Source of the DNA: Nannocystis pusilla
Lineage (GTDB): Bacteria; Myxococcota_A; Polyangia; Nannocystales; Nannocystaceae
DNA length: 64,000 nucleotides
Reading direction: 5' to 3' (one strand)
NCBI RefSeq assembly: GCF_051105105.1
Contig: NZ_CP185339.1
Shown here: piece by piece, positions 14,879-64,000 of the stretch
How the letters are laid out: each line of letters begins with the position of its first letter
Numbering within the stretch: the stretch's first letter is position 1
The notes under the pieces: model-generated
Seen by the model: the letters and a program-made list of their open reading frames with translations, nothing else
What the model was told of the DNA's origin: nothing
The model's database searches: none
Program-made: the position numbers and the translations under genes

Positions 14879-15421
14879 TCAGTGGAACTCCACCACGAGC
14901 CGGTTGGGGTCGCCGTCGTTGGTCACGTCGACGTAGTAGAGGTCGCCGGGCGCCATCACCCCGCCGATCAGCACGCCGCGCTCGATCGTCTTGTCGAACG
15001 GCGTGGACGAGCGGATCACGGCGTGGCCGCGCTCCGAGTCGAACTCGGCCAGGTCGAACGAGCCGACCACCTCGCGCGGGCCGCGGATGACGCTGGCGAT
15101 GCCGTGGCTGCCGGTCTGAAAGTGCAGGAAGTCGGCGCCACGGTGGATGAGCGCCTTGCCGGGCCCGCCGTGGTACCACAGCCGCATCATCTCGATGCCG
15201 AGCTTGAGCCGGATCGGCTCGACGTTGGCGTACGACTCGCCGACCATCCGCTCGATCTCCATCCACTTCGACAGCGGGAACCACCGCCCCATGTCGATGT
15301 CGGCCAGCAGCGCTGTGGCTCGGCGACCGGCCACGATGTTGAGGTTGACGCACGCCTGGGCGAAGCCGCCCATCAGCGCCCCGTGGACCACCGGCTCGCT
15401 CGGCTCGCTCGGCTCGCTCAT
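14879..15421 (-). CDS. Hypothetical 180 aa protein, possibly a ligand-binding sensor
   Basis: Translation MSEPSEPSEPVVHGALMGGFAQAC. GC3 is high, and the start overlaps the GRAS-like stop as ATGA. Confidence 0.65.
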   Translation of the reverse strand: MSEPSEPSEPVVHGALMGGFAQACVNLNIVAGRRATALLADIDMGRWFPLSKWMEIERMVGESYANVEPIRLKLGIEMMRLWYHGGPGKALIHRGADFLHFQTGSHGIASVIRGPREVVGSFDLAEFDSERGHAVIRSSTPFDKTIERGVLIGGVMAPGDLYYVDVTNDGDPNRLVVEFH

Positions 15422-16512
15422 CCCGCCTCCCCCGCGAACGCGAACACCGCGATGATCGGCACCCCGCGGTAGGACAGCCGCACGAGCCCGGAGCTGACCG
15501 AGGAGCGGCAGTACTCGGGCAGGTCGACGTCGAGGTCGATCGCCGGGTACGGCACGAAGCCCGACTTCTTCAGCCGGAGCAGCCACGACTCGAGCGTCTC
15601 GTGGCGCTCGGTGCGGAAGGCGTCGCTGGTGCCGAGGATGTCGCGGACCTCGCGGCCGAAGAAGCCCTCCTTGATGGCGAACTTCTCGTCGGGGGACGCG
15701 TCGCTGCGGTCGACCAGGTCGAACACCGTCGCGAAGTGCTGCCAACAGTGGTGCATGCGCCGGGTCAGGTGCTCGGTGTCGTGGTCCGAGCTCGGCTCGA
15801 CCAGCGTGAACACCCGCGGCCTCAGGGCCCGCAGCCGCCGCAGCAGGCGGGTGCGCGCGTCGCTGTCGGGGCCCGTGGTGTGGTGCAGCGTGTAGGCCGC
15901 GTTGATCGACAAGCTCCCCTCGGCGAGCGCCTCGAAGTGCGCGTAGTCGGCATCCTCGCAGACCTCGATCAGCTTGACCAGCGGATAGATCTCGATGTCG
16001 AACGGCAGCTCGGCGCGGACCTCGTCGATCGCGGCCACGCCCTCGTTCAGGGCGGTGCGGTTGGGCTCGAGCGCGATCACGCGGAGGCGCTCGATCTTGC
16101 CGGGGTCGCGCGCGAGCGCCCGCAGCAGCGCGACGATCTGCAGGCCCTTGCCGATCCCGATCTCGAGCAGCGCCGGCGTGCTCGACTGCCGCATCGCGTG
16201 CACGAGGTACTGGTTGGCCAGCGCGTAGCCCTGCGGCACCGCCGGGATCGCCCGCTGCAGCAGCGTGAACAGGTCGATCTGCGGCCGCTTCTCGGCTTGC
16301 AGGTACAAGTTCCGCCCCGACAGCAGGTTGCGGTCGATCCGTCGCAACAGCGACTCGGCGACGATGTGGGACAACAGCGCGTCGCTCGGGACATCGACGT
16401 CGAGGGCGTCGAGGAGCTGGCTCGCTATCACCGTCTTGGCGACCTGCTCGCGATGCCGGCGAATGTCCTGGCACGCGGCCAAAATCAGCTTGTAGCGGTC
16501 CTCGTAGAGCAT
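15418..16512 (-). CDS. Bacterial GRAS-like domain protein (Rossmann-fold, methyltransferase-related)
   Basis: A VHIID-like block reads ALLEIGIGKGLQIVALLRALARDPGKIERLRVIALEP, and a SAW-like C-terminus reads RTERHETLESWLLRLKKSGFVPYP. The start is placed at MLYEDRYK because upstream codons have low GC3. Confidence 0.6.
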   Translation of the reverse strand: MLYEDRYKLILAACQDIRRHREQVAKTVIASQLLDALDVDVPSDALLSHIVAESLLRRIDRNLLSGRNLYLQAEKRPQIDLFTLLQRAIPAVPQGYALANQYLVHAMRQSSTPALLEIGIGKGLQIVALLRALARDPGKIERLRVIALEPNRTALNEGVAAIDEVRAELPFDIEIYPLVKLIEVCEDADYAHFEALAEGSLSINAAYTLHHTTGPDSDARTRLLRRLRALRPRVFTLVEPSSDHDTEHLTRRMHHCWQHFATVFDLVDRSDASPDEKFAIKEGFFGREVRDILGTSDAFRTERHETLESWLLRLKKSGFVPYPAIDLDVDLPEYCRSSVSSGLVRLSYRGVPIIAVFAFAGEAG

Positions 16513-16805
16513 GCGCCGCAGACTGAAGGTCACACAGGGGATCCGCCTTGGCAAGCTGATGCGCACCCGATCGTGGCCGAGAAGATTATCTCGGCCCTCG
16601 CGCGGAAACGCGCCGCGTAGCCTGGCGCAGGCCCCGTCGGCCTCTGTCTCAAAGACCACCCAGCGGCGCTACCGGACCGCGGGCCACTGCGCAGGTCGCG
16701 TGCGGCAGAGGACCGTGACGCACACGACGGACTGCATCTTGAGACATGGTCCGAAAACCATGACGCGGCGCGGCGAATCCGGCAGAAAGTGGCCGAAAGC
16801 AGGCC

Positions 16806-42512: not shown

Positions 42513-43409
42513 ATGAACGTCGCCGCCGCCGTCACCCACCTCCTTCCCCTCCCGGCCGGTGGCGGCGTCGCCGCCCCTCTTGATGTGGTGGAGCTCCAGT
42601 CCGAGCTCAACGTCCTCGCCGACGAGGCCCTGCGCGCGCGCCGCCAGGGCCTTTCTTTGTTGGCCGCCGTCCGCGACCCGCGTTTCCCGGCCCTCCAGAG
42701 CTTCCACCAGGGCCTGCGCGACGCCCTCTTCCTCGAGATACCGGAGGAGCTGGAGCCGTGGGCGCGGCTCGCCGCCAACGGAGCCGGCAATCCGCCGCTG
42801 CAGCACATGCTCGTCGACTTCGCCCGCGGCGGCGACGACGACCGGCGCAGCGCCCTCCAGGCCGCCCTGGCCGAGCTGCTGGTGTTCGAGGCCATCCGTC
42901 TGCGCCTGTTCGTCACCGCCTTCCGCGGCGAAGAGTTCGAGGTCGTCGGCGGCGAGGAGTCCGACGTCGACGCCATCGCCTACACCGAGGTAGCGACGCT
43001 CCTCCACCGCCCCGAGCTGGCCGACCCCGATGTCCGCCCGCTCACCGTCCTGCTCGCGTCCGCCTCCGTCTCGCTGGCCCGCGACGCCCAGTCGCGCGCC
43101 GAGGAGCTGCGTGACACCGGCGAGGACACCCGGGAGGAGCTGCGCATGCGCGCCCGCCTCCGCGCCGCCCTCCGCGAGCTCCGTCTGCCCGAGGCCGTCC
43201 TGCTGGAGAACGCCCTGGCCGCGCTGCTCGGCGAGGAGCGGCGCGAACTCACCGAACTGCAGGCCGAGCGCCCCGTCGCCCTCGACGGCATGACTCGCCA
43301 GGCCATGGATCAGCGGGTCTCTCGCGGCCGGCGAGCGCTCGCCCACCCCCGCTCGACCTGGCCCCGCCGCCGCCGCCCGGCCCTGTTCGATCTGCTCCAG
43401 CGCGCCTGA
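42513..43409 (+). CDS. Hypothetical protein
   Basis: 298 aa with high GC3. Confidence 0.55.
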   Translation: MNVAAAVTHLLPLPAGGGVAAPLDVVELQSELNVLADEALRARRQGLSLLAAVRDPRFPALQSFHQGLRDALFLEIPEELEPWARLAANGAGNPPLQHMLVDFARGGDDDRRSALQAALAELLVFEAIRLRLFVTAFRGEEFEVVGGEESDVDAIAYTEVATLLHRPELADPDVRPLTVLLASASVSLARDAQSRAEELRDTGEDTREELRMRARLRAALRELRLPEAVLLENALAALLGEERRELTELQAERPVALDGMTRQAMDQRVSRGRRALAHPRSTWPRRRRPALFDLLQRA

Positions 43410-43793
43410 AGACTCGCCGAACGAAAGCGCGACGGCTGGTCGACGCAGCTTCGAAGCCGTGCGGCCTGCCCCGCGACCACAGCCGAGCGTCGAGCGACCA
43501 CATGTGCCTCGTTCCACGGCACCGGTTCCGACCGCCCAGCGTGGCTCGACCAGCTCCGACTCGCGTCCGGCTGGTGGCGCTCACCGGTCGGCGCGCCGCA
43601 GAACATCGCCTGTCCCGGGGATCGCCATCGAACGGGCGCGAACCGAGGGACCGTCGCTGACATCGTACGCTGCCCTTTGGGCCCCTGGAGCCGCGGCTTT
43701 GGAGGCGCGCCGCGCGTGCGAGGTCGACGTCACGGATCTCGCCTCGCGAACGGGTTCACGGCGGGCGCGACCCTGGTATGCTCCGCGCCCGCC

Positions 43794-44330
43794 ATGGCCG
43801 CCCCACCCGAACCCACACGCGGACCGCGGATCGCCCTCGCAGCGGTGATCGCCGGTCTCAGCCTCGGCCTCGACCTTTGGAGCAAGGCGTGGGTCTGGAA
43901 CAACCTGCGAGACCAGGCCGCCTGGAAGGTCAGCGACAAGCTGCTGCACTTCGACTTCGCCTGCAATCCCGGCTCTGCCTTCGGGTTCCTCAACGACGTC
44001 GACTGGGCGCGCTACTTCTTCATCGTCATCACCCTGGCCGCGGTCGGCTACCTCGTCCACCTCGCGCGGACCTTGCCGACCACCAGCCGGGCCGCCTTCA
44101 TCGCCATCGGCCTGATCGCCGGCGGCGCCCTCGGCAACCTGCACGACCGCCTGGTCCGGGTCTACGCCGGCGACTACTGCGTGGTCGACTTCATCGTCGT
44201 CTACCTGTGGGGCGGCAAGACCTGGCCGGCCTTCAACATCGCCGACGCCGTCCTGGTCGCGGGCGTGTTGTTGTTCCTGCTCGTGCTGCCGCGCACCGAG
44301 GCCGCCGCCGACGACCGGACCTCCGCCTGA
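43794..44330 (+). CDS. lspA: Lipoprotein signal peptidase (signal peptidase II), copy 1
   Basis: LspA motifs NPGSAFG and FNIADAVLVAG. Confidence 0.85.
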   Translation: MAAPPEPTRGPRIALAAVIAGLSLGLDLWSKAWVWNNLRDQAAWKVSDKLLHFDFACNPGSAFGFLNDVDWARYFFIVITLAAVGYLVHLARTLPTTSRAAFIAIGLIAGGALGNLHDRLVRVYAGDYCVVDFIVVYLWGGKTWPAFNIADAVLVAGVLLFLLVLPRTEAAADDRTSA

Positions 44331-44830
44331 GCCTCGTGCTGCCCGGGGCAACCATCTGCCTGAGCCACTGGCCCCGGCGCCTCGAGCCCGAGGCTGCGGC
44401 CGACAATCGGACCTCCGCCTGAGCCGCGAGCTGCCCCGCCGCGAGGCAGCCGGCATCGGCGAAGCGCGAGCTCCCGCGCCGCGAGGCAGCCGACCTCGGA
44501 GTTCCGCCCGAACCCTCGAGCTGCCCAGCCAATGCACCGAGGCGGCGCCCGACGAGCGGACCTCCGCCTGAGCCGCGAGCTGCCCCGCCCCGAGGCAGCC
44601 GGCATGGGCGAAGCGCGAGCTCCCGCGCCGGGAGGCAGCCGACCTCGGAGTTTCGCCCGAACCCTCGAGCTGCCCAGCCAATGCATCGAGGCGGCGCCCG
44701 ACAATCGGACCTCCGCCTGGGGACCTCCGCCCGAACTCTGGAGCTGCCCCGCCCAGGACCCCGGGAGGCGGCCGACGATCGGACTCCGCCTGAGCCTTGA
44801 GCTCCCGCTCCGAACCCCGCCGCTACCCGC
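44292..44830. repeat. Tandem direct repeat of about 150 bp (about 3.5 copies) seeded from the 3' end of lspA copy 1
   Basis: Units start near 44292, 44386, 44536, 44686 and 44770. Each re-creates ...GAGGC(G/C)GCGCCCGACRAKCGGACCTCCGCCTGAGCC, encoding DxRTSA*. Confidence 0.75.
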
Positions 44831-45022
44831 TGAACCTGCCTCGTGCCTACCAAGGCGACGGGCCGGCCGAACTCGCCGGAAGCGCCTAGCGGCGACCGCG
44901 CAGCCGAGCCCACAACCCTGCCCGGCTGCCTTTCCGACCGCCTCTGCGCCCCGCGGCCCAGCGGCGGCTGCGCTTGCTCGCCCTGATGCCTCGGGTACAC
45001 TGGCCCGGTTTTTCGGCCCTAC

Positions 45023-45607
45023 ATGAGCGACACGCCAGCATCGAACCGGCTCCGGCCAATCCTCATCACCGCCTCTGCAGCCGCGGTGTTTCTGATCCTC
45101 GACCTCGTGACCAAGAGCTGGGCCTGGGACAACCTCCGGCCGCCGAACCGGCAGATTGCCGCGATCGGCAACTGGTTCCACTGGTCCTACAGCTTTAACA
45201 CGGGCTCCGCCTTCGGCTTCCTGCGCGGCCAGGACTTCTCGCGCCCCCTGTTCATCGTCGTCACCCTCGTGACGGTGGTCTACATGGCCGCCCTCGTCCG
45301 CAAGCTGCCGACCGACCGCCTGTACGGCTTCTTCGCCATCGGCTGCATCATCGGCGGCGCCCTCGGCAACATGCACGACCGCCTGTTGCGCCAGGACACC
45401 GACCCCCACGGCAACCTCACCCACGGCGTGGTCGACTTCATCCGCGTGTGCTCCCCGTGGAACCCTCGCGGTCTGTGCTGGCCGAACTTCAACGTCGCCG
45501 ACATCGCCCTCGTCGTCGGCGTCCTGCTGCTCATCCCGTACTTGATGTTCCACGCGCAACCACCGGAAACAAAAGAGAATACAGCCGAGGCAAAACCCGC
45601 TTCCTGA
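45023..45607 (+). CDS. lspA: Lipoprotein signal peptidase (signal peptidase II), copy 2 (paralog)
   Basis: LspA motifs FNTGSAFGF and FNVADIALVVG. Confidence 0.85.
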   Translation: MSDTPASNRLRPILITASAAAVFLILDLVTKSWAWDNLRPPNRQIAAIGNWFHWSYSFNTGSAFGFLRGQDFSRPLFIVVTLVTVVYMAALVRKLPTDRLYGFFAIGCIIGGALGNMHDRLLRQDTDPHGNLTHGVVDFIRVCSPWNPRGLCWPNFNVADIALVVGVLLLIPYLMFHAQPPETKENTAEAKPAS

Positions 45608-45982
45608 GCCGCGATCGCGCCCGGACAACGCCGACCTGAGCGAGAGCGAAGCGCGAAACCTGGCAGCCGCCACCTAAAGCCGACACCCCAAGCTCCGCGC
45701 GCAAGTCCCCCTGGTCGAGCCGCGCCCGATTGCCGCCCAGGAAACCCCCTGGACCGTCCTCGGCCCGCCTGCTGCCAAGAAGCCTCCTGTACGCCCTCGG
45801 CCCGCCTCCCCGGCAAGCGGGGGCCCGTTCACCCGCGGGCCTGCCAGCTTCTCAGGGCACCGGACGGCGAATCGAGGAGTTCCCTGCGCGGCAGGGCCCC
45901 CAGTCGCCCTCCGTCTTTTCGCCTGCCGGCCAGGCCACTCACCGAGTGCCGCCGCTGCGAGTCGAGCTCGGAAGCCGACCGC

Positions 45983-47248
45983 TCAGACCCGCTCGAACGC
46001 GCGCACCTTGTCCCAGGACTCGCGGCGTTCGGCCTCCGGGTCGGAGTCGATCACGATGCCCCCACCGCTCTGCAGCCACAGCCCGGCCGCGTCGGCCACC
46101 CCGGTGCGGATCGGGATGCTGCAGCGCAGCCCGTCGGGCAGCAGCGCCACGATCGCCCCGCAGTAGATCCCGCGAGCGCGCTGCTCCAGTCGCTCGATGT
46201 GCTCCACCGTTCGCCGCTTGGGGGCTCCCGTCACGCTGCCGCCGGGGAACACCGCCGCCATCACCTCCGCCAGCGTCCATCCCTGGCGCAGCGTGCAGCG
46301 GACCTCCGACACCAGGTGATGCACCGTCGGCAGCGTCACCAGTTCGGGCCGGGCCGGCGCGCGGACCGAACCCGGGCGCGCGAGCCGGCCGAGATCGTTA
46401 CGCACAAGATCAACGATCATCACATGTTCAGCGAGATCTTTGATGCTCTGCTGCAACTCTTCTTGGGCTGCCCGGTCGCGCCCAGGATCGGCCCCTCGCG
46501 GGCGCGTGCCCTTGATCGGCCACGAGCGCGCCAGGTCGCCGCCGTCCTCTCCCGCCCCCAGCTCGATCGCCAGCAGCGTCTCCGGCGAATTGGAGATCGC
46601 CCAGCGCCCGCACGGCCGCCCGGGCTCGATCGCCAGCAGACCTCCCATGCTCGCCGGCGTCGCCGCCTGCACTGCCGCGTACACGGCCGCCGCCCTGGCC
46701 GCCACCGGCCGACTCTCCCATTCCGGCAGCCACCTGGCCACGAACGGCTGCGTCAGGTTGATCTGGTACGTCTCCCCGGCCGCGATGAACTCCTGCGCCC
46801 GGCGCACGCGCCCCCGGTAGTCCTCGGCGGCCACCAGCGCCTCGACCGGACCGAGCGGCCAGTCCTGTCCCCAAGGCCAGGTGGCAGTCGCCAGCCGCGC
46901 CAGCAGCTCCGCCCCCGCGCGAGCGTCCCCGTGGATCCGTTCGCGCGCCCCGAGCTCGAGCGCCGCCCGGTAACGGCGGAGCACCAGCCCCGGCAAGCTC
47001 GCCGCCTTCGGCGGGCGGCCGAGCAGCGCCGCCGTGCCGACCTCGTAGGTCAGCCAGCCGAACCACGGCAGCGCCGGTTCCGCTCGCCAGAGCGCCTCGA
47101 TCGTCGGCAACGCCGTCAGATCGTCGGCCACCACCTCGAGGTCGGGCTCGAGCGCCACGAACCCACGGCCGGCCCCGCCGTCGAGCCACGCCAGCGCTCC
47201 GCCCGGCTCCGACGCGGCCAGCGCCGCGATCTGGCGCGCCCGGGTCAC
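45983..47248 (-). CDS. Chorismate-binding enzyme, aminodeoxychorismate/anthranilate synthase component I-like
   Basis: Chorismate-binding motifs LVRNDLGRLARPGSV, VFPGGSVTGAPK and IYCGAIV. The GTG start overlaps the pgsA stop. Confidence 0.8.
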   Translation of the reverse strand: MTRARQIAALAASEPGGALAWLDGGAGRGFVALEPDLEVVADDLTALPTIEALWRAEPALPWFGWLTYEVGTAALLGRPPKAASLPGLVLRRYRAALELGARERIHGDARAGAELLARLATATWPWGQDWPLGPVEALVAAEDYRGRVRRAQEFIAAGETYQINLTQPFVARWLPEWESRPVAARAAAVYAAVQAATPASMGGLLAIEPGRPCGRWAISNSPETLLAIELGAGEDGGDLARSWPIKGTRPRGADPGRDRAAQEELQQSIKDLAEHVMIVDLVRNDLGRLARPGSVRAPARPELVTLPTVHHLVSEVRCTLRQGWTLAEVMAAVFPGGSVTGAPKRRTVEHIERLEQRARGIYCGAIVALLPDGLRCSIPIRTGVADAAGLWLQSGGGIVIDSDPEAERRESWDKVRAFERV

Positions 47249-52927: not shown

Positions 52928-53650
52928 TCCGCCCGCGCGCCGCCGCCTCGCCTGCGCCCGCGTCGGCGAGCGGCGCCGTCTCGCTGCGCGTCTCGGCGAA
53001 TGATTCTGCCCCAAGCGTCGGCGACGTAGCGCTGCCGGACGAAGTCTCGCGCGAGCTCCAGTCGCAGCTTCGCGGCATCGAGGTTCGTGCGAGCTCCTCG
53101 CTCGGGCTCGCGTCGCGGGACTTCGCGCTGCGATCGTCCACTTCGTTCTCGCGTCGCGTCGAAGAAACGCCGGCCATCTCCTCGCCCTACGCCGCTTCGA
53201 CGCCCCCGCTTCGTAGCGACGTTCGAGGCAAGCGCGAGCGTACGGTCGGAGGTCAGGTCACTGCAACCGTCCGCTTCGCTCATGCACGCAGTCGACGCGA
53301 CGCTGGTGCTCTCCTCGCGCGAGGCCGCGTCGCCGCCGCTTTTTCATCGCGGCTCCGAAGCAAGCGCGAGCACTCGCTTTGCGCTCGCGTCGCCGCGACC
53401 GTCCGCTTCGGTCATGCATGCGGTCGACGAGACGCGGACGAGTTCCTCGTCCGAGACCGCGTCGCCGCCCGCACTTCCTCGCGACCTCGACGTAAGCGCG
53501 AGCGCCCGGCCCGAGGTCGCGTCGCCGCATCTCCTTCCTCGCGGCTTCGATGTGAGCGCGAGCTCTTCGTCCGAGGCCGTGTCGCGGGGCGGCGCGCTGC
53601 GACTGTCCCCGCTCCGTCTCGGTCGCGTCGCGCACGCGAGCTCGTTCCCC
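52928..53650. repeat. Degenerate tandem repeats of about 66 nt (GCTTCG..CATGCA..GTCGACG..AGCGCGAGC..GCGTCGCCGC)
   Basis: At least five copies. In translation they give a 22-aa Ser/Ala/Pro-rich period. One copy contains a GACGTTC variant at 53218. Confidence 0.6.
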
Positions 53651-58452: not shown

Positions 58453-58719
58453 TCAGGACGCGGCGGCCTGCTTCTCTTGCACCGTCTTGTGCAGCAGGTC
58501 GACGAGCTCGTTGATGTTCGTCAGCTTGTTGAGCTCGGCGCGGGGGATCTTCACCTTGAGCTCGCGCATGCTGCAGGAGACGACCTCGACGATGTCGAGG
58601 CTGTTGGCGCCGAGGTCCTTCATCGACTTGGCGGGGTCGACCTGGGCCGCATCGATCCCTTCGACGGTGTCCACGAGGTGGCGCTTGACGACGGCCAAGA
58701 CATCATCGCGGGTGCTCAT
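58453..58719 (-). CDS. Acyl carrier protein
   Basis: 88 aa with the phosphopantetheine attachment motif DLGANSLDIVEVV. Confidence 0.85.
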   Translation of the reverse strand: MSTRDDVLAVVKRHLVDTVEGIDAAQVDPAKSMKDLGANSLDIVEVVSCSMRELKVKIPRAELNKLTNINELVDLLHKTVQEKQAAAS

Positions 58720-58782
58720 TCTCGGTTCTCCTTGGTGGGCGCGGTGCAGGTTGCCCGCAGCGAATCTCGCAGGAAGCGAAGG

Positions 58783-59598
58783 TCAAAAACTCAGCCCGAG
58801 GCGCTCGCGCGCCGAAAACAGGCGAACGACGTTGTCGGCGAAACCGAGGCCCCTGTCCAGTAGCAGAATCTGCCCCTTGACCCCGTCCATGAGACCGCTG
58901 CAGAGGGCCAGCGCCGCGGCCGCGACCTCGTCGGGGTCGATGAACCAGCCTTCCGAGTAGTACTTCTTGCAGAACGGCACGAAGTCGGGCCCGAAGGTGG
59001 CCTCCAGCGATGCAGTCTCGACCGGGTTCGCGCGCAGGATGTTGATGCGAACATCCTCACTGAGCAGATCTGCCGTGAGGTAGCGACAGAAGGTCTCCAT
59101 CACGGTCTTGCTCGCGGCCACGAAGTCGTAGCCCGGGAGGAAGTACTCAGGCCCGCGCGACGACATTCCCACCGCGTAGCGGGGCCAGCGACCGAAGGTC
59201 TCGCGGATGGCCTGCAGGTAGCCGACGAACGGCCACGCGCTGTAGCCGAGGCTGCGGAGGAAGCTCTTCTTGTCGAGGTCCTCGTGCGACTTGCTGACGT
59301 GGGCGAACGACACGTTGCTGATCAGCGCGAACACGGCGTCGTGGTCGCGCTTGACCGCCTCCATCAGCGCCTCGGTGTCCTCGTCTTGCGACGCGTCGGC
59401 CTCGACGATCGTCGGCGCCGGCGCGCCCGCGGCGTCGAAGCGGGCCCGCAGCTCGTCTTCGTCGGCCGAGCCCCAGCGGTGCGTCAGGTACACGTGCGCG
59501 CCGTACTTGCCGAACAGCAGGCCGGTCGCCAGGCCGATGCCCGCCGTCCCGCCGGTGACGATGACGGCCTTGCCCTTGAGGTCGTTGCGGAGGATCAC
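58783..59598 (-). CDS. SDR family oxidoreductase, paralog B (atypical FabG/FabL-like)
   Basis: GGAAGGAG ribosome-binding site plus GTG start. Translation VIVTGGTAGIGLATG; catalytic YDFVAASK. Confidence 0.8.
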   Translation of the reverse strand: MILRNDLKGKAVIVTGGTAGIGLATGLLFGKYGAHVYLTHRWGSADEDELRARFDAAGAPAPTIVEADASQDEDTEALMEAVKRDHDAVFALISNVSFAHVSKSHEDLDKKSFLRSLGYSAWPFVGYLQAIRETFGRWPRYAVGMSSRGPEYFLPGYDFVAASKTVMETFCRYLTADLLSEDVRINILRANPVETASLEATFGPDFVPFCKKYYSEGWFIDPDEVAAAALALCSGLMDGVKGQILLLDRGLGFADNVVRLFSARERLGLSF

Positions 59599-60410
59599 GC
59601 CGGAGCTCCTTCCTTGTCGCTGCCGCCGACGAGCCGCGGCCCGAGCGTGGCGACGTTGTCGACGAACGCCGCGCCGCGGTCGAGCGTCAGCACCTGCCCG
59701 CCCATGGCGTCGAACAGCCCGCTGCACAGCGCGAGGGTCGTGTCGGCGACCTCGTCGACGGTGCACGCGAACTCGGGGAACTTGCCCGCCAGCTCGCGCT
59801 GCTGGGCGGCGAACATCTGCTCGTAGCTCTCGGTCATCACCTGGCGGGTGCGCAGGGCGTTGACGATGCAGCCGTGCTCGTAGAGGTGCGTGCTCATGTA
59901 GCGCACGAACGTCTCGAGCACCGCCTTGGCCACGGCCACGTAGTCGTAGCCGGGGTAGTGCGTGTCGGGCCCGTCGGACGACATCGCCAGCGCGTAGCGG
60001 GGGTAGCGACCGAACGCGGCGTGCAGCGCCTGCAGGTAGCCGACGAACGGCCAGCTCGAGTACTCGAGGCTCTTGTACAGCGCGCGCCGGGTGTGCTTCT
60101 CCGGCCCTTCGCCGCGCTGGACCACGCAGACGTTGCTGATGAACGCCCACACGCCGTCGCACTCCTCCTTGAGCCGCGCGGTCAGCTTGTCGGTGTCCTC
60201 CTCGCGCGACGCGTCGGCCTCGAGCACCAGCGGCGCCGGGGCCCCGACGGCGGTAAAGCGGGCCTTGAGCTCGTCCTCGTCGGCCGAGCCCCAGCGGTGC
60301 GTCAGCACCGTGCGCGCGCCCTGGCGCCCGAACGCGAGCCCGCACGCGAGGCCGATGCCGCGCGTCCCGCCCGTGATCAAGACGACCCTGTCCTTGAAGT
60401 CATTGAGCAA
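59595..60410 (-). CDS. SDR family oxidoreductase, paralog A
   Basis: Translation VVLITGGTRGIGLACG; catalytic YDYVAVAK. About 55-60% identical to paralog B by eye. Confidence 0.8.
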   Translation of the reverse strand: MLNDFKDRVVLITGGTRGIGLACGLAFGRQGARTVLTHRWGSADEDELKARFTAVGAPAPLVLEADASREEDTDKLTARLKEECDGVWAFISNVCVVQRGEGPEKHTRRALYKSLEYSSWPFVGYLQALHAAFGRYPRYALAMSSDGPDTHYPGYDYVAVAKAVLETFVRYMSTHLYEHGCIVNALRTRQVMTESYEQMFAAQQRELAGKFPEFACTVDEVADTTLALCSGLFDAMGGQVLTLDRGAAFVDNVATLGPRLVGGSDKEGAPA

Positions 60411-60413
60411 GCG

Positions 60414-61190
60414 TCATCCTCCCTGGCCTGGCCCGTAGTTCGTGCGGATCCGCGCCACCGTCTCCGGGTCGGCGAAGCATACCTCGTGCATCATCGACTC
60501 GACCGTACGCGCCTCCTCGAAGGCGCGGCGGCGCGGCAACGCCAGCGCACGTTTCAGCAACAGCAGCGCAGCCCGCGGCTTGTCGGCGATCCGCGCCGCC
60601 ATGTCGAGCGCCCGCGGCAGCACCTCGGCGCGCGGCACGACCGCGTTGACCTGGCCGCGCCCGGCCAGCTGCTCGCCGCGGAAGTACTGCGAGCCGTACA
60701 GCATCTCGGCCCCGACGTACTCGCCGAACGCGAACTGCACGAGGCGCGTGGCGCCCATCCCCGGCGTGAAGCCGAGGTCCATGAAGTTGGCGCCGTAGCG
60801 GCTCTCGCGGGCCATCACGACCATGTCGCAGGCGAGGCCGAACACCAGGCCGCCGCCGACCGCGGGCCCCGCCATCGCGGCGATCGTCGGCACCGGCACC
60901 TCGAGCAGCGCGCGCGTCAGCAGCAGGTCGTACGGCGCGATCGTGCCGTCGGCGAGGCCGAGCAGGACGTCGCGGTCGCCGCCGGCGGAGAACACCTCGG
61001 GCAGGCCGGCGATCACGACCACGCGCACGTCGGCGCGCTGGCCGAGGTCCCCCAGCGCGCGCGTCAACACGGCGACGAACGCCCGGCCGAACGCGTTCTT
61101 GCCCGCCGCGTCGCGCATGGTCAGCACGGCCACGCCGTCGCGCTCGAGCGTCACCTCGACGAGGCTGTCTGTTTGGACATGCGCGTTCAT
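60414..61190 (-). CDS. Enoyl-CoA hydratase/isomerase, PksI/ECH2-like
   Basis: Crotonase fold. Translation MNAHVQTDSLVEVTLERDGVAVLTMRD...FSAGGD. Confidence 0.8.
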   Translation of the reverse strand: MNAHVQTDSLVEVTLERDGVAVLTMRDAAGKNAFGRAFVAVLTRALGDLGQRADVRVVVIAGLPEVFSAGGDRDVLLGLADGTIAPYDLLLTRALLEVPVPTIAAMAGPAVGGGLVFGLACDMVVMARESRYGANFMDLGFTPGMGATRLVQFAFGEYVGAEMLYGSQYFRGEQLAGRGQVNAVVPRAEVLPRALDMAARIADKPRAALLLLKRALALPRRRAFEEARTVESMMHEVCFADPETVARIRTNYGPGQGG

Positions 61191-61942
61191 TCCTGTCCTT
61201 TCAGCCTGGCGAACCACGGCGGCGCCTGCCCCTCGGCCAGCAGGGCCGCCAGCGCCGCCCGCAGCTCGGGGTCCTCGAGGTCGGCCGCGGTCTGGGCCAC
61301 CCCGCCCTGCCCGGCCGGCCCGGTGATCCTCTTGAGCGTCGCCACCGCCTGCGGGCGCGCGCGCAGCAGCGAGCGCATGAGCCCGCGCAGCGCCTTGTCC
61401 GGGTCGTCCGCGACCACATCGACGAGGCCCCACGGCTCGGCCTGGGCCGCGGTCACCAGCTCGCCGGTCAGCGCCAGCCGCCGGGTCCGCCGCGCGCCGA
61501 TCCGGGCCTCGAGCGCCGGGAAGATCACCGCCGGCACCAGCCCGTAGCGCAGCTCCGGCAGCGCGAACGTGGCCGCCGGCGCCGCCACCACCAGGTCGCA
61601 CGCGGCCGCCAGGCCGACCCCGCCGCCGCTGGCCGCGCCGGTGACCACCGCGATCGTCGCCAGCTTCGCGCTCGCCAGCAGCTCGAGGCAGCCGGCGAAG
61701 CGCTGCATCGCCTCGCGCATCTGCGCCGACGGGGTCCGCAGCGCCGCCGCGAGGTCCATGCCGGCGCAGAACTCGGGGCCCTCGCTGGCGATCACCAGCG
61801 CGCGCGCCGGTCCGGCGACCGCCTGCTCGACCGCGTCGGCCAGCGCGGCGATCCCGTCGGTGTCCAATGCGACATGTCCTCCGGGACCTGCCCCGAGGAA
61901 CAGCCGATGGATCAGCTCGCCCTCTTCGCAGCGGACGCGCAT
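61187..61942 (-). CDS. Enoyl-CoA hydratase/isomerase, PksH/ECH1-like
   Basis: Crotonase fold. Translation ALVIASEGPEFCAGMDL. The N-terminus contains a palindromic element copy (GACATGTCC..GGACCTGCCCC). The start is uncertain. Confidence 0.75.
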   Translation of the reverse strand: MRVRCEEGELIHRLFLGAGPGGHVALDTDGIAALADAVEQAVAGPARALVIASEGPEFCAGMDLAAALRTPSAQMREAMQRFAGCLELLASAKLATIAVVTGAASGGGVGLAAACDLVVAAPAATFALPELRYGLVPAVIFPALEARIGARRTRRLALTGELVTAAQAEPWGLVDVVADDPDKALRGLMRSLLRARPQAVATLKRITGPAGQGGVAQTAADLEDPELRAALAALLAEGQAPPWFARLKGQE

Positions 61943-62050
61943 CGGCTCACCGCTCCCGCGCAGGGGGACGAGGGGACGAGCGATCCGGCCGCGCGCCGAG
62001 GGGCGGCGCGGCAAGCGTGGCGAGGGGCGTGCGCGGCATGATTCTGGCCC

Positions 62051-63292
62051 TCAGGACAGGCGGTACTCCCGCTGGAAGCCGCGCACCGCGTCGAGCACGA
62101 GGCGGCCCTTGCCGGCGTAGGCGCGCTCGTAGAGCCCGCGCAGGCCCGACTGGTCGACCTCGTAGTCGCTCTGGTCGATGAAGGCGGCGCGCTGGCGCTC
62201 GAGCGCCTCGTACTCCTCGATGGTCAGCGGCATGCGGCGATCGAGGCCGGCGCCGACGCGCTGGCCCGCGACCTGCTCGCGCGCGCGCTCGCCGACGGTC
62301 GCGCGGTAGAACTCGGCGCACGAGCCCGAGCCGTAGGAGAAGATCGAGACCTTGTCGCCCGCGCGCAGCTCGGGGTCGGCGTCGATGAGGCCGAGCATGG
62401 CGATGAAGGTCGCCGAGGTGTAGGTGCCGCCGAAGCGCGAGTTGTAGCGCAGCGCCTGCTTCGACTTGCGCTCGAAGTGAGCCCTGGCCTCGCGCAGCGA
62501 CATCTCGTGCGGGCCGCGGCGGAGCAGCGCCCGGTGGGCCCGGAAGGTCATGCCGCCGAACGGCACGTGGTAGATGTGGCGCGCGAACTCGGCGTCGTAG
62601 TCGACCATGCCCGAGCGGGCGACGAAGTGGTCGTAGGCGCCCTCGAGCGCGTCGAGGTAGCCGTACAGGCTGGTGTCGGCGTGGCCGACCTCCTTCGTCG
62701 AGGTCGGGCGGTAGGTGTCGAAGATCTCCTGCGTCCAGTAGCCGCAGGTGTCGAGGTCGATCTCGAGGACGTTGGGCTGGGCGCTGACCAGCATCGCCGT
62801 GGCCGCCGCGCCGAGCACGTACTCCCACGGCTGGCCGAGGTGCACGCGGCTCTGATCGGTGCAGACCACCAGCGCCTTCTTGCCCGGCGCCGCGCCCGAC
62901 GCGACCCAGTGGGCCGCCATCATCAGGCCGCCGGTGCCGCCGTAGCAGGCGTGCTTGGTCTCGAAGTTGCGGCAGTTGGCGGTCAGCCCGCAGTAGCGCT
63001 GCACGTAGGTCGAGATCGGCTTGCCGAAGTCGACCGACGACTCGGTGCCGACGATCACGAGCTCGATGTCCTTGCGGTCCTCGGGCCGGACGATCTGCAG
63101 CGCGGCGTTGACCGCCATCGTCACCGGGTCTTCCCACGTCGGGTTGAGCGAGCGCTCGCTGACCCACAGCTCCTCGAGCGGGTGGCGCGGATCGTGATCG
63201 CGCGCCTCCGCGAGCAGCTTCATGTCGAGCGAGAGCGTGCACGGGTACGCCGTGATCCGCTCGATGCCCACGCGCGGCCGGTGGTGCGCCAT
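62051..63292 (-). CDS. HMG-CoA synthase-like beta-branching enzyme (PksG/CurD-type)
   Basis: Translation VGIERITAYPCTLSLDMKLLAEARDHDP...ACYGGTGGLMMAAHWV...SYGSGSCAEF. Confidence 0.85.
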   Translation of the reverse strand: MAHHRPRVGIERITAYPCTLSLDMKLLAEARDHDPRHPLEELWVSERSLNPTWEDPVTMAVNAALQIVRPEDRKDIELVIVGTESSVDFGKPISTYVQRYCGLTANCRNFETKHACYGGTGGLMMAAHWVASGAAPGKKALVVCTDQSRVHLGQPWEYVLGAAATAMLVSAQPNVLEIDLDTCGYWTQEIFDTYRPTSTKEVGHADTSLYGYLDALEGAYDHFVARSGMVDYDAEFARHIYHVPFGGMTFRAHRALLRRGPHEMSLREARAHFERKSKQALRYNSRFGGTYTSATFIAMLGLIDADPELRAGDKVSIFSYGSGSCAEFYRATVGERAREQVAGQRVGAGLDRRMPLTIEEYEALERQRAAFIDQSDYEVDQSGLRGLYERAYAGKGRLVLDAVRGFQREYRLS

Positions 63293-63307
63293 CGCCGTCC
63301 TCTCCTC

Positions 63308-64000
63308 TCAGTACGTCCAGTCGAGGCCGCCGGTGACCGGCACGACCTGACCGTTGATGAAGCTGCCGCCCGTGGCCAGGAACAGGACCGTCGCCGCCAG
63401 CTCGGCCAGCGTGCCCATGCGCCCCTTCGGCATCGGGCAGTACTGCTGCCAGTAGTCCTTGGCCGCCTGCGGCATGGTCTCGCGCGTCATGTCGGTGTCG
63501 AAGAAGCCCGGCACGACGACGTTGGCGGTGATGCCCTTGCGCCCGTACTCCTTGGCGAGCGCCTGGGTGAAGCCGTGCAGGCCGGCCTTGCTGGCGGCGT
63601 AGTTGGCCTGGCCGGCCGCGCCGTTGTGCTGGATCGACGAGATGTTGACGATCCGCCCGAACCGCGCCGCCAGCATGGCCGGCAGGAACGCGCGCACGAC
63701 GTAGAACGGCCCGTGCAGGTTGGTGGCGAGCACGTCGTGCCACTCCTCGTCGGACATCGAGACCACGAGGTTGGCGCGGTTGATGCCGGCGCAGTTGACG
63801 ATCACCTCGACGCTGTCGAAGTCGTTCAGCACCTCGTCGGCGACCTCGCCGACGCGGTCGGAGCGGCTCACGTCGAGCGCGTAGCCCTTGACCTTCGCGC
63901 CCGGGCGGATCGCCGCCGCCTCGGCCTCGATCTTGCGCGCAGCGTCGTCGTTGCTGCGGTACGCGAACGCGACGTCGTGGCCGGCGCGCACCGCCTCGAG
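63308..64000 (-). CDS. 3-oxoacyl-ACP reductase (FabG-like SDR). Partial: the N-terminus runs off the window.
   Basis: Translation NCAGINRANL...NISSIQHNGAAGQANYAASKAGLHGFTQALAKE...VVPGFFDTDMT. Confidence 0.85.
   Translation of the reverse strand, partial: LEAVRAGHDVAFAYRSNDDAARKIEAEAAAIRPGAKVKGYALDVSRSDRVGEVADEVLNDFDSVEVIVNCAGINRANLVVSMSDEEWHDVLATNLHGPFYVVRAFLPAMLAARFGRIVNISSIQHNGAAGQANYAASKAGLHGFTQALAKEYGRKGITANVVVPGFFDTDMTRETMPQAAKDYWQQYCPMPKGRMGTLAELAATVLFLATGGSFINGQVVPVTGGLDWTY

Follow-up and report, generated by a model that had tools for sequence, protein, structure and literature searches.

Introduction

Enterobacterial REP and BIME elements are GC-rich imperfect palindromes that lie after stop codons, are dispersed in hundreds of copies and are conserved in sequence. 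In Mycobacterium tuberculosis, the MIRU-VNTR are described as a dispersed family of 46-101-bp tandem repeats present at 41 loci (PMC3914561, citing Supply et al. 1997, 2000). For lipoprotein signal peptidase genes (lspA), M. xanthus lspA1 and lspA2 are described as tandem housekeeping genes of the lgt operon, the resistance-linked lspA3 and lspA4 being placed inside the myxovirescin cluster, and producers of myxovirescin and globomycin are described as having extra lspA copies (PMC8689077).

Here we describe a locus of Nannocystis pusilla, within a stretch of 64,000 nucleotides (the window), where a hierarchical tandem array fills about 550 bp of the 692-bp gap between two lspA genes. It resembles REP and BIME elements in having imperfect GC-rich palindromes just past a stop codon in a multi-gene unit, where stabilisation of the upstream mRNA is conceivable; in contrast to REPs, its units stay local, differ in sequence from strain to strain and gain no folding stability over shuffled sequences. 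The likeness to the MIRU-VNTR lies in tandem units some tens of bases long that sit, in a genome of high GC content, between two genes of the same orientation in an operon-like pair, with strain-variable length and copy number and no evident coding role (PMC3914561). However, compared with MIRUs as described in that source, the lspA unit was found at one locus instead of 41 and derives from the 3' end of the adjacent gene, the array is built hierarchically, 40-59-nt units being nested in 106-149-nt repeats, with a period not divisible by three, and the differences between strains concern sequence and organisation besides copy number.

[quoted passage not shown] The array is probably a strain-variable, non-coding minisatellite that grew from the lspA1 3' end by slippage or unequal recombination and that lies, probably as a neutral element, beside an old housekeeping pair.

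Results

Structure of the lspA1-lspA2 region

Both genes that flank the gap encode proteins matching PF01252 (Peptidase_A8), with 106.3 and 110.7 bits against a gathering cut-off of 25, and the gap between them measures 692 bp (44331-45022), in agreement with the original prediction of two lspA genes about 690 bp apart. The catalytic Asp pairs, Asp132 (VVDF) and Asp151 (FNIAD) in LspA1 and Asp138 (VVDF) and Asp160 (FNVAD) in LspA2, aligned to Asp124 and Asp143 of P. aeruginosa LspA (structures 5dir/9emz), and the dyad of the VVDF and FNxAD motifs was invariant in the LspA protein alignment. Judged by these motifs, lspA1 and lspA2 are signal peptidase II genes, with predicted prolipoprotein cleavage. 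An exact-sequence look-up of the two window proteins returned no record; LspA1 was 100% identical to the N. pusilla protein P0129, found in the 90% cluster of P0001. The features of the region are listed in Table 1.

Table 1. Features of the lspA1-lspA2 region, in window positions.
Feature	Position	Strand	Supporting data
lspA1, lipoprotein signal peptidase II, 178 aa	43794..44330	+	PF01252 E 2e-30
Unit U0, last 16 codons plus stop of lspA1 (VLPRTEAAADDRTSA and stop)	44283..44335	+	83-88% identity downstream
Degenerate units U1, U2	44336..44427	+	unit alignment; orthologous units in RBIL2, L028
Higher-order copy 1, 149 nt (U3+U4+U5)	44428..44576	+	TRF period 149 (other register), unit alignment
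Copy 1, sub-unit U3, 40 nt	44428-44467
Copy 1, sub-unit U4, 50 nt	44468-44517
Copy 1, sub-unit U5, 59 nt	44518-44576
Higher-order copy 2, 149 nt (U6+U7+U8), tail TGG not TGA	44577..44725	+	95% identical to copy 1
Third higher-order copy, truncated (U4-type tail + U9), 1-nt tail-motif deletion	44720..44798	+	TRF period 74
Last degenerate unit U10 and non-repetitive spacer	44799..44957	+	74% identical to RBIL2 counterpart
Conserved block, putative lspA2 promoter or 5' leader	44958..45022	+	94% identical to RBIL2
lspA2, lipoprotein signal peptidase II, 194 aa	45023..45607	+	PF01252 E 9e-32

The array is made up of roughly 11 elementary units of 40-59 nt; two higher-order copies of 149 nt are flanked on both sides by degenerate ones. 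Head-to-tail repetition was beyond chance, as TRF detected a period of 149 nt (2.2 copies, 93% matches, score 601) at 44388-44719, and the second 149-nt copy matched the first with an nhmmer E-value of 8.5e-30. One 149-nt repeat consists of three related sub-units of 40, 50 and 59 nt; between the two copies, identity was 96% for U4/U7 and 95% for U3/U6. The motif CGGACCTCCGCCTGAGCC occurred three times exactly and once with three mismatches, against 0.48 occurrences expected by chance. Partial degenerate copies were found at 44283-44427 and 44720-44830. The third higher-order copy was 75-79% identical to copies 1 and 2, and is older than both.

Three earlier statements about this gap were correct in part. 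It had been said to consist of some 3.5 repeats of 150 bp; about 550 bp are indeed repetitive, but only 2.2 copies of 149 nt are clean, the flanking ones being degenerate and partial, and the final ~190 bp (44831-45022) showed no recognisable repetition. Each repeat had also been said to regenerate the lspA1 tail and its stop. The tail motif is present five times, at 44298, 44390, 44539, 44688 and 44765 (spacings of 92, 149, 149 and 77), and unit U2 encodes EAAADNRTSA and a stop in a frame different from that of lspA1, but the fourth copy reads EAAPDNRTSA-W, with TGG replacing the stop, and the fifth carries a 1-nt deletion. Finally, a GC-rich hairpin, GCTGCC-N9-GGCAGC, was found at 44430-44450 and 44579-44599, but its stability was no better than that of dinucleotide shuffles.

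The GC content by codon position was flat in the spacer (0.75/0.77/0.73) compared with lspA1 (0.65/0.47/0.94), the plus-strand frames of the array contain stop codons and the repeat period is not divisible by 3. The array is apparently non-coding.

Origin of the repeat unit

A 52-nt piece of the repeat unit was 83-88% identical to the lspA1 3' end (44293-44344), and a lone 149-nt unit used as nhmmer query found the end of the lspA1 gene (E 0.002). The 5' part of the unit matches the coding sequence GTGCTGCCGCGCACCGAGGC (VLPRTEA), also present in two array-less relatives, L001 and N. exedens L029; the latter ends in EAPADGRTTA and a stop, the same type of tail, followed by a 132-bp gap. As these relatives already have the matching end, the gene end predates the array and the array was copied from it. 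Therefore, the proposal that the repeat is an amplification which re-copies the lspA1 3' end was supported, and the event is specific to one lineage.

The following course of events would account for this structure. The first step, in the N. pusilla complex, would have been a tandem duplication of the final ~53 nt of lspA1 (VLPRTEAAAD.RTSA and stop) directly downstream of the gene. Slipped-strand mispairing or unequal recombination, with short direct repeats such as GAGCTGCC and CGGACCTCCGCC as the pairing sites, would then have acted repeatedly and produced a hierarchical minisatellite with 40-59-nt units grouped into 106-110-nt higher-order repeats. The 149-nt period of the window would result from the addition of an extra 40-nt unit, the enlarged repeat having subsequently been duplicated or homogenised.

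Variation among relatives

Within the N. pusilla complex, the gap measured 692 bp in the window, 620 bp in L028, 498 bp in RBIL2, 424 bp in L023 and L025, and 318 bp in L024, L026 and L027. Outside the complex it was 132 bp in N. exedens, 116 bp in L004, 61 bp in L001, 21 bp in L022, 4 bp in L002 and L003, and -4 bp in L005-L008; among the loci compared, the array is limited to the N. pusilla complex. Array periods were 106 nt (two copies) in RBIL2, 110 nt (2.5 copies) in L028 and 149 nt (2.2 copies) in the window, where both 149-nt copies hold a 40-nt unit, that of the perfect hairpin, which is wholly absent from RBIL2 and L028. Identity to the window within the complex was 97-99% for lspA1 and 95-97% for lspA2, compared with only 39-68% for the spacers. 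The five spacer lengths, with differing organisation between lspA genes that are 95-99% identical, confirmed the expectation that copy number differs among strains, and this length polymorphism, like the head-to-tail repetition and the lack of coding character, is that of a minisatellite.

Identity was higher among the copies of one genome (93-96% in the window) than across genomes (72-86%), and the third window copy matched the second copy of RBIL2 ambiguously, being 72-79% identical to everything. Comparable units diverged by 14-28%, compared with 2.8-8.7% at third codon positions of the flanking genes, and this excess requires an elevated local rate of mutation or conversion, or else mis-assigned orthology. 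The array was kept in at least five lineages, a persistence compatible with some benefit, but a self-renewing repeat would also persist.

The 61-bp gap of L001 is homologous over its whole length to the conserved block (~65 nt) upstream of lspA2, which array-less relatives thus also have. The block contains TTGCTC-N16-TACACT and the invariant GGTACACTG, and plausibly carries lspA2's own promoter or leader. No site passed a scan for sigma-70 consensus promoters, the conserved block included, TTGCTC having 3/6 matches to the first hexamer. The array is most likely selectively neutral, and its position between the lspA1 stop and this block is probably the reason why it is tolerated.

RNA structure and expression of the pair

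The original prediction had also considered a regulatory or attenuator array. If the array worked as an RNA element between the two cistrons, the GC-rich hairpins would stabilise the lspA1 mRNA, or pause, terminate or process the transcript, and lspA2 would be uncoupled from lspA1 with a ratio tuned by array copy number. As the lspA genes abut or overlap in relatives (-4 to 4 bp), an untranslated insert of 692 nt must alter any coupling; an imperfect inverted repeat is present in every unit, the spacer is rich in C (272 C and 201 G in 627 nt), and the whole 692-nt spacer folded better than 20 shuffles (z -4.2), which leaves room for long-range RNA structure. However, the units themselves showed no excess stability over dinucleotide shuffles (z -0.7 to +1.3), no U-tract follows the array hairpins (only two TTT runs in 627 nt), and Rfam gave nothing in 43000-46500 at a permissive E-value, nor in the whole window at gathering score. 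No terminator-like site was found inside the array; the single candidate (44991-45013) lies outside it, and was rejected as its stem needs a C at 45006, a position occupied by A in the genomes of the N. pusilla complex and of N. exedens. The GC-rich hairpin followed by a U-tract of an intrinsic terminator or attenuator is thus lacking in the array, and neither the spacer sequence nor the unit composition is conserved between strains. With these results the attenuator proposal lost its support, and a functional RNA element of any of these kinds is unlikely. A Rho-utilisation role of the array was likewise unsupported, its G content being 32%.

Less likely again is that the array serves as a store of alternative lspA1 ends and as a length-variable spacer, changes in length resetting the expression ratio of the LspA paralogs. 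If so, the last residues of LspA1 would be swapped whenever the end of lspA1 recombined unequally with downstream units, which have tail codons and a stop of their own, and this would explain why LspA1 amino-acid differences in the N. pusilla complex all lie within residues 174-178; position 174 is occupied by six different residues among Nannocystis sequences.

Search for copies at other loci

Another conceivable source of the units is a dispersed family of intergenic repeats (REP/BIME-, MITE- or MIRU-like), which would have inserted at the lspA1 stop and given the gene a new 3' end. Each unit, 40-59 nt long, has an inverted repeat within it, the genes on either side point the same way, and the stop codon of the upstream gene is part of the unit; in this the units resemble MIRUs, which PMC3914561 describes as tandem repeats of 46-101 bp found at 41 loci. 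The window also holds another array, unrelated to this one, at 53178-53585. Nevertheless, nhmmer found no further unit copies in the 64-kb window or in loci L001-L017, and a scan of species-representative genomes for the exact 23-base motif returned the RBIL2 lspA locus only, once, so that the motif occurs nowhere else in the RBIL2 genome. The copies at many loci expected of a dispersed family were therefore not seen in any of these searches, and the VLPRTEA-matching part of the unit is ancestral in array-less relatives. Metagenome matches to a degenerate tail motif amounted to eight single hits, attributable to chance, with no lspA and no array. An origin from a dispersed family is very improbable.

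Conservation of the lspA pair and self-resistance

The two lspA genes were in tandem at every related locus examined (L001-L009, L018-L029). LspA1 and LspA2 share 43.7% identity, and throughout Nannocystaceae, array-less lineages included, the genes beside the pair are conserved, which excludes a recent duplication of lspA itself, as had been suggested. In the distant relatives L018-L021 the order is lspA-lgt-lspA, and the Nannocystis clade has no lgt at this position. Given this order, the spacer was considered as a decayed lgt, but tblastn with two Lgt proteins found nothing in the window. The flanking genes encode an acyltransferase, epimerases, a chorismate-binding enzyme, a CDP-alcohol phosphatidyltransferase and a flavoprotein; the neighbours within ~10 kb are primary-metabolism or envelope genes, shared by distant relatives, and no PKS or NRPS genes were found within that distance. 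An HMG-CoA-synthase/ACP/ECH gene set is located ~13 kb downstream of the lspA pair.

The second lspA had been proposed to be a resistant copy shielding an organism that makes an LspA inhibitor, the repeat marking its recent acquisition or amplification. The extra lspA copies described in myxovirescin and globomycin producers (PMC8689077) and the gene set ~13 kb downstream speak for it. However, the age and conservation of the pair and the nature of its neighbours stand against it, no inhibitor cluster adjoins the pair, no copy exists beyond the conserved housekeeping set, and the arrangement fits the M. xanthus housekeeping lspA1/lspA2-lgt and not the cluster-embedded lspA3/lspA4, as these are described in PMC8689077. 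Self-resistance is thus a highly improbable role, and the pair is, from its distribution, an old and conserved housekeeping pair of Nannocystaceae.

Repetitive DNA is easily misassembled, the 3' end of a target gene is duplicated when an integrative element inserts, and the LspA1 differences confined to residues 174-178, with six residues at position 174, could suggest a diversity-generating retroelement (DGR); but it is highly improbable that the array is an assembly artefact, since homologous arrays are present in five independent assemblies, multi-megabase contigs included, with copies diverged by 5-27%, or a set of att-site scars of integration and excision at the lspA1 3' end, since the copies follow each other head-to-tail in a hierarchical order and neither an integrase nor foreign DNA separates them, or a DGR template repeat targeting the LspA1 tail, since mismatches between unit and gene end are mostly at G, C or T and not at adenines (U2 1/4, U5 0/4) and no reverse transcriptase was found among the conserved neighbours scanned.

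Discussion

The locus adds an ordinary bacterial minisatellite to a known type, and no link to antibiotic self-resistance was seen. A tempting but unsupported story, that of an extra lspA for self-resistance or of a regulatory array, is thereby removed, and the array has no evident bearing on LspA biochemistry or on antibiotic discovery.

In practical terms, the array is a hypervariable marker with which strains of the N. pusilla complex could be distinguished, and short-read assemblies are likely to contain errors at the lspA gap. For the biology of the group, it represents a clean natural case in which the 3' end of a bacterial gene gave rise to a minisatellite beside it, and in which the N. 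exedens outgroup fixes the direction of origin and five alleles show the later remodelling.

The tandem lspA pair and its context

Both genes predicted to encode signal peptidase II gave Peptidase_A8 matches, and their catalytic Asp residues (D132/D151 in LspA1, D138/D160 in LspA2), which lie in the motifs VVDF and FNxAD, aligned with those of the solved P. aeruginosa LspA. As the proteins share just 43.7% identity, the genes are old paralogs. The nearest LspA1 homologues come from Nannocystis and the Nannocystaceae; named Nannocystis proteins sit in the 90% cluster of the top homologue, among them an N. pusilla entry (P0129) with exactly the sequence of the window's LspA1. The G+C content of the window is 71.8%.

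Features of the lspA locus
Feature	Coordinates	Strand	Description
lspA1	43794-44330	+	178 aa, Peptidase_A8 match, E 2e-30
Unit U0			final 16 codons and stop of lspA1
Units U1, U2			degenerate units
Higher-order copy 1	44428-44576		U3+U4+U5 (40+50+59 nt)
Higher-order copy 2			U6+U7+U8
Third copy, truncated	44720-44798		followed by the last degenerate unit
Conserved block	44958-45022	+	final ~65 nt before the lspA2 ATG
lspA2	45023-45607	+	194 aa, Peptidase_A8 match, E 9e-32

The pair and its neighbours were conserved in every related locus examined, with an acyltransferase, epimerases and two unknown genes upstream and a chorismate-binding enzyme, a CDP-alcohol phosphatidyltransferase, SLT and a flavoprotein downstream. 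[quoted passage not shown] The window's neighbours were also seen around lspA-lgt-lspA in two of these distant Nannocystaceae loci (at 5001-6975 in L018 and 5001-7027 in L020). The Nannocystis clade lacks lgt between its two lspA genes; as the entire window is also free of any lgt remnant, the gene must sit elsewhere in the genome. The proposal that the extra lspA copy confers antibiotic self-resistance gained no support from this context, because the neighbours are conserved, the arrangement with lgt is of the housekeeping type, and no PKS/NRPS genes were found within ~10 kb of the pair.

Anatomy of the array

TRF detected 2.2 copies of a 149-nt period over 44388-44719 (93% matches, score 601) and a second period of 74 nt over 44654-44792. 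No repetition was recognisable in 44831-45022. The original prediction of 3.5 copies of 150 bp was right about the array but overstated its regularity. Splitting of 44283-44830 at the anchor G[A/T]GCTGCC yielded about eleven units, 40-59 nt long and related to one another. The lspA1 3' end (44293-44344) was 83-88% identical to a 52-nt portion of the repeat unit, and one 149-nt unit used as a query in nhmmer recovered the gene end (E 0.002). The predicted GC-rich hairpin was found as GCTGCC-N9-GGCAGC. The tail motif occurs five times, spread over three frames: EAAADDRTSA, EAAADNRTSA and EAAPDERTSA, each with its predicted stop, EAAPDNRTSA-W, where TGG replaces the stop predicted for it, and a fifth copy with a 1-nt deletion.

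Codon-position GC was flat in the spacer (0.75/0.77/0.73) compared with lspA1 (0.65/0.47/0.94), and the array period is not divisible by three. A regulatory array, which would act in mRNA stabilisation or in uncoupling of lspA2, is an unlikely alternative that found no positive support. In folding stability, single units and 149-nt repeats did not exceed their dinucleotide shuffles (z -0.7 to +1.3); only the complete 692-nt spacer did, against a set of 20 shuffles (z -4.2). Rfam gave no match for the locus at a permissive E-value or for the whole window at the gathering score, a scan found no terminator-like sites within the array, and there were only two TTT runs in 627 nt of spacer.

The block upstream of lspA2 was 94% identical in Nannocystis sp. 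RBIL2 and corresponds to the whole gap of L001. Within it, GGTACACTG, 20-30 nt 5' of the lspA2 start, was invariant in every lineage whose gap measures 61 bp or more (alignment A4), and may be a -10 element or protein-binding site; L004 keeps it although the remainder of its gap is unrelated. TTGCTC-N16-TACACT also lies in the block, too weak for a consensus promoter scan. We infer that the block is a putative lspA2 promoter or leader, in which case the DNA 5' of it would be free to expand. A terminator-like hairpin (44991-45013) was rejected, as its stem relies on C at 45006, replaced by A in N. pusilla-complex and N. exedens genomes.

Variation of the spacer among relatives

Gap from the lspA1 stop to the lspA2 ATG
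Locus	Gap (bp)
Window	692
L028, N. pusilla GCA_049060185.1	620
L009, RBIL2	498
L023 (N. pusilla GCA_026626665.1), L025	424
L024, L026, L027	318
L029, N. exedens	132
L004	116
L001	61
L022	21
L002, L003	4
L005-L008	-4

The strain variation expected for the repeat was borne out within the pusilla complex by spacer lengths of 318-692 bp and differing periods. Nucleotide identity to the window was 97-99% for lspA1 and 95-97% for lspA2, whereas spacers reached only 39-68%. The arrays of RBIL2, reported as close to N. pusilla (PMC10435759), and L028 have periods of 106 nt (x2) and 110 nt (x2.5, 73%), and a three-way alignment revealed a backbone common to both and the window. The 40-nt unit of both full window copies is missing from the other two. 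Copies were more alike within a genome (window 93-96%, RBIL2 83-92%) than across genomes (72-86%), which points to lineage-by-lineage duplication or homogenisation. The L023 and L024 arrays are shorter and differently organised, again re-copying GTGCTGCCGCGCACCGA from the lspA1 end.

No further copies were found with the unit profile, either across the 64-kb window or among loci L001-L017. Among 185,579 species (one genome each), the exact motif CCGACNNNCGGACCTCCGCCTGAGCC had a single match, in the lspA locus of RBIL2; eight metagenome matches to a looser motif, without lspA, were attributed to chance.

A second hierarchical array, unrelated in sequence, lies at 53178-53585 (period 132 x2.7 at 72%, period 60 x2.5), with a 115-aa ORF on one side and a coding region beginning near 53500 on the other, and shows no codon-position GC signal; this genome may commonly carry long minisatellites between its genes. 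A GRAS domain (PF03514, E 2e-35), of a family known chiefly from plants, occurs in a 416-aa protein encoded on the minus strand at 15418-16668. Also on the minus strand, consecutive genes for an ACP (PP-binding), a short-chain dehydrogenase, an enoyl-CoA hydratase, an HMG-CoA synthase and an SDR/KR protein (58453-64000) look like an HMG-CoA-synthase cassette; ended by the window edge, it may border a biosynthetic cluster, and lies ~13 kb from lspA2 with housekeeping genes in between.

Origin of the array

N. exedens has a tail of the same type (EAPADGRTTA and stop), the coding sequence GTGCTCCCGCGCACCGAGGC and a gap with no repeat, and VLPRTEA is present in L001. As the 5' part of the array unit matches this ancestral VLPRTEA-type coding sequence of array-less relatives, the gene end is the template and the array the copy, and an outside element as donor of the gene end was rejected. 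The best-supported reading is a minisatellite that would have been seeded by tandem duplication of the lspA1 terminus. The short direct repeats bounding every unit would then have allowed slippage or unequal recombination to enlarge and reshape it.

LspA1 proteins of the N. pusilla complex differ in amino-acid sequence only at residues 174-178. Codon 174 (44313-44315) is the most variable, with six residues among otherwise nearly identical Nannocystis proteins, and the matching triplet, the most variable spot among units, reads GAC, AAT, GAG, AAT and GAT (four different triplets) in the five tail copies. A small quasi-palindrome, CCGA-NNN-TCGG, holds this triplet in its loop. The simple explanation is that the tail is under relaxed constraint; alternatively, units may possibly exchange sequence with the gene end. 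The mismatches show no adenine specificity and no reverse transcriptase lies nearby, which makes a DGR unlikely.

The array probably evolves at a neutral rate or above. Between the members of a conserved housekeeping lspA pair lies a real and well-defined intergenic minisatellite that varies among strains, a fresh example of an already known feature type and of low general interest.
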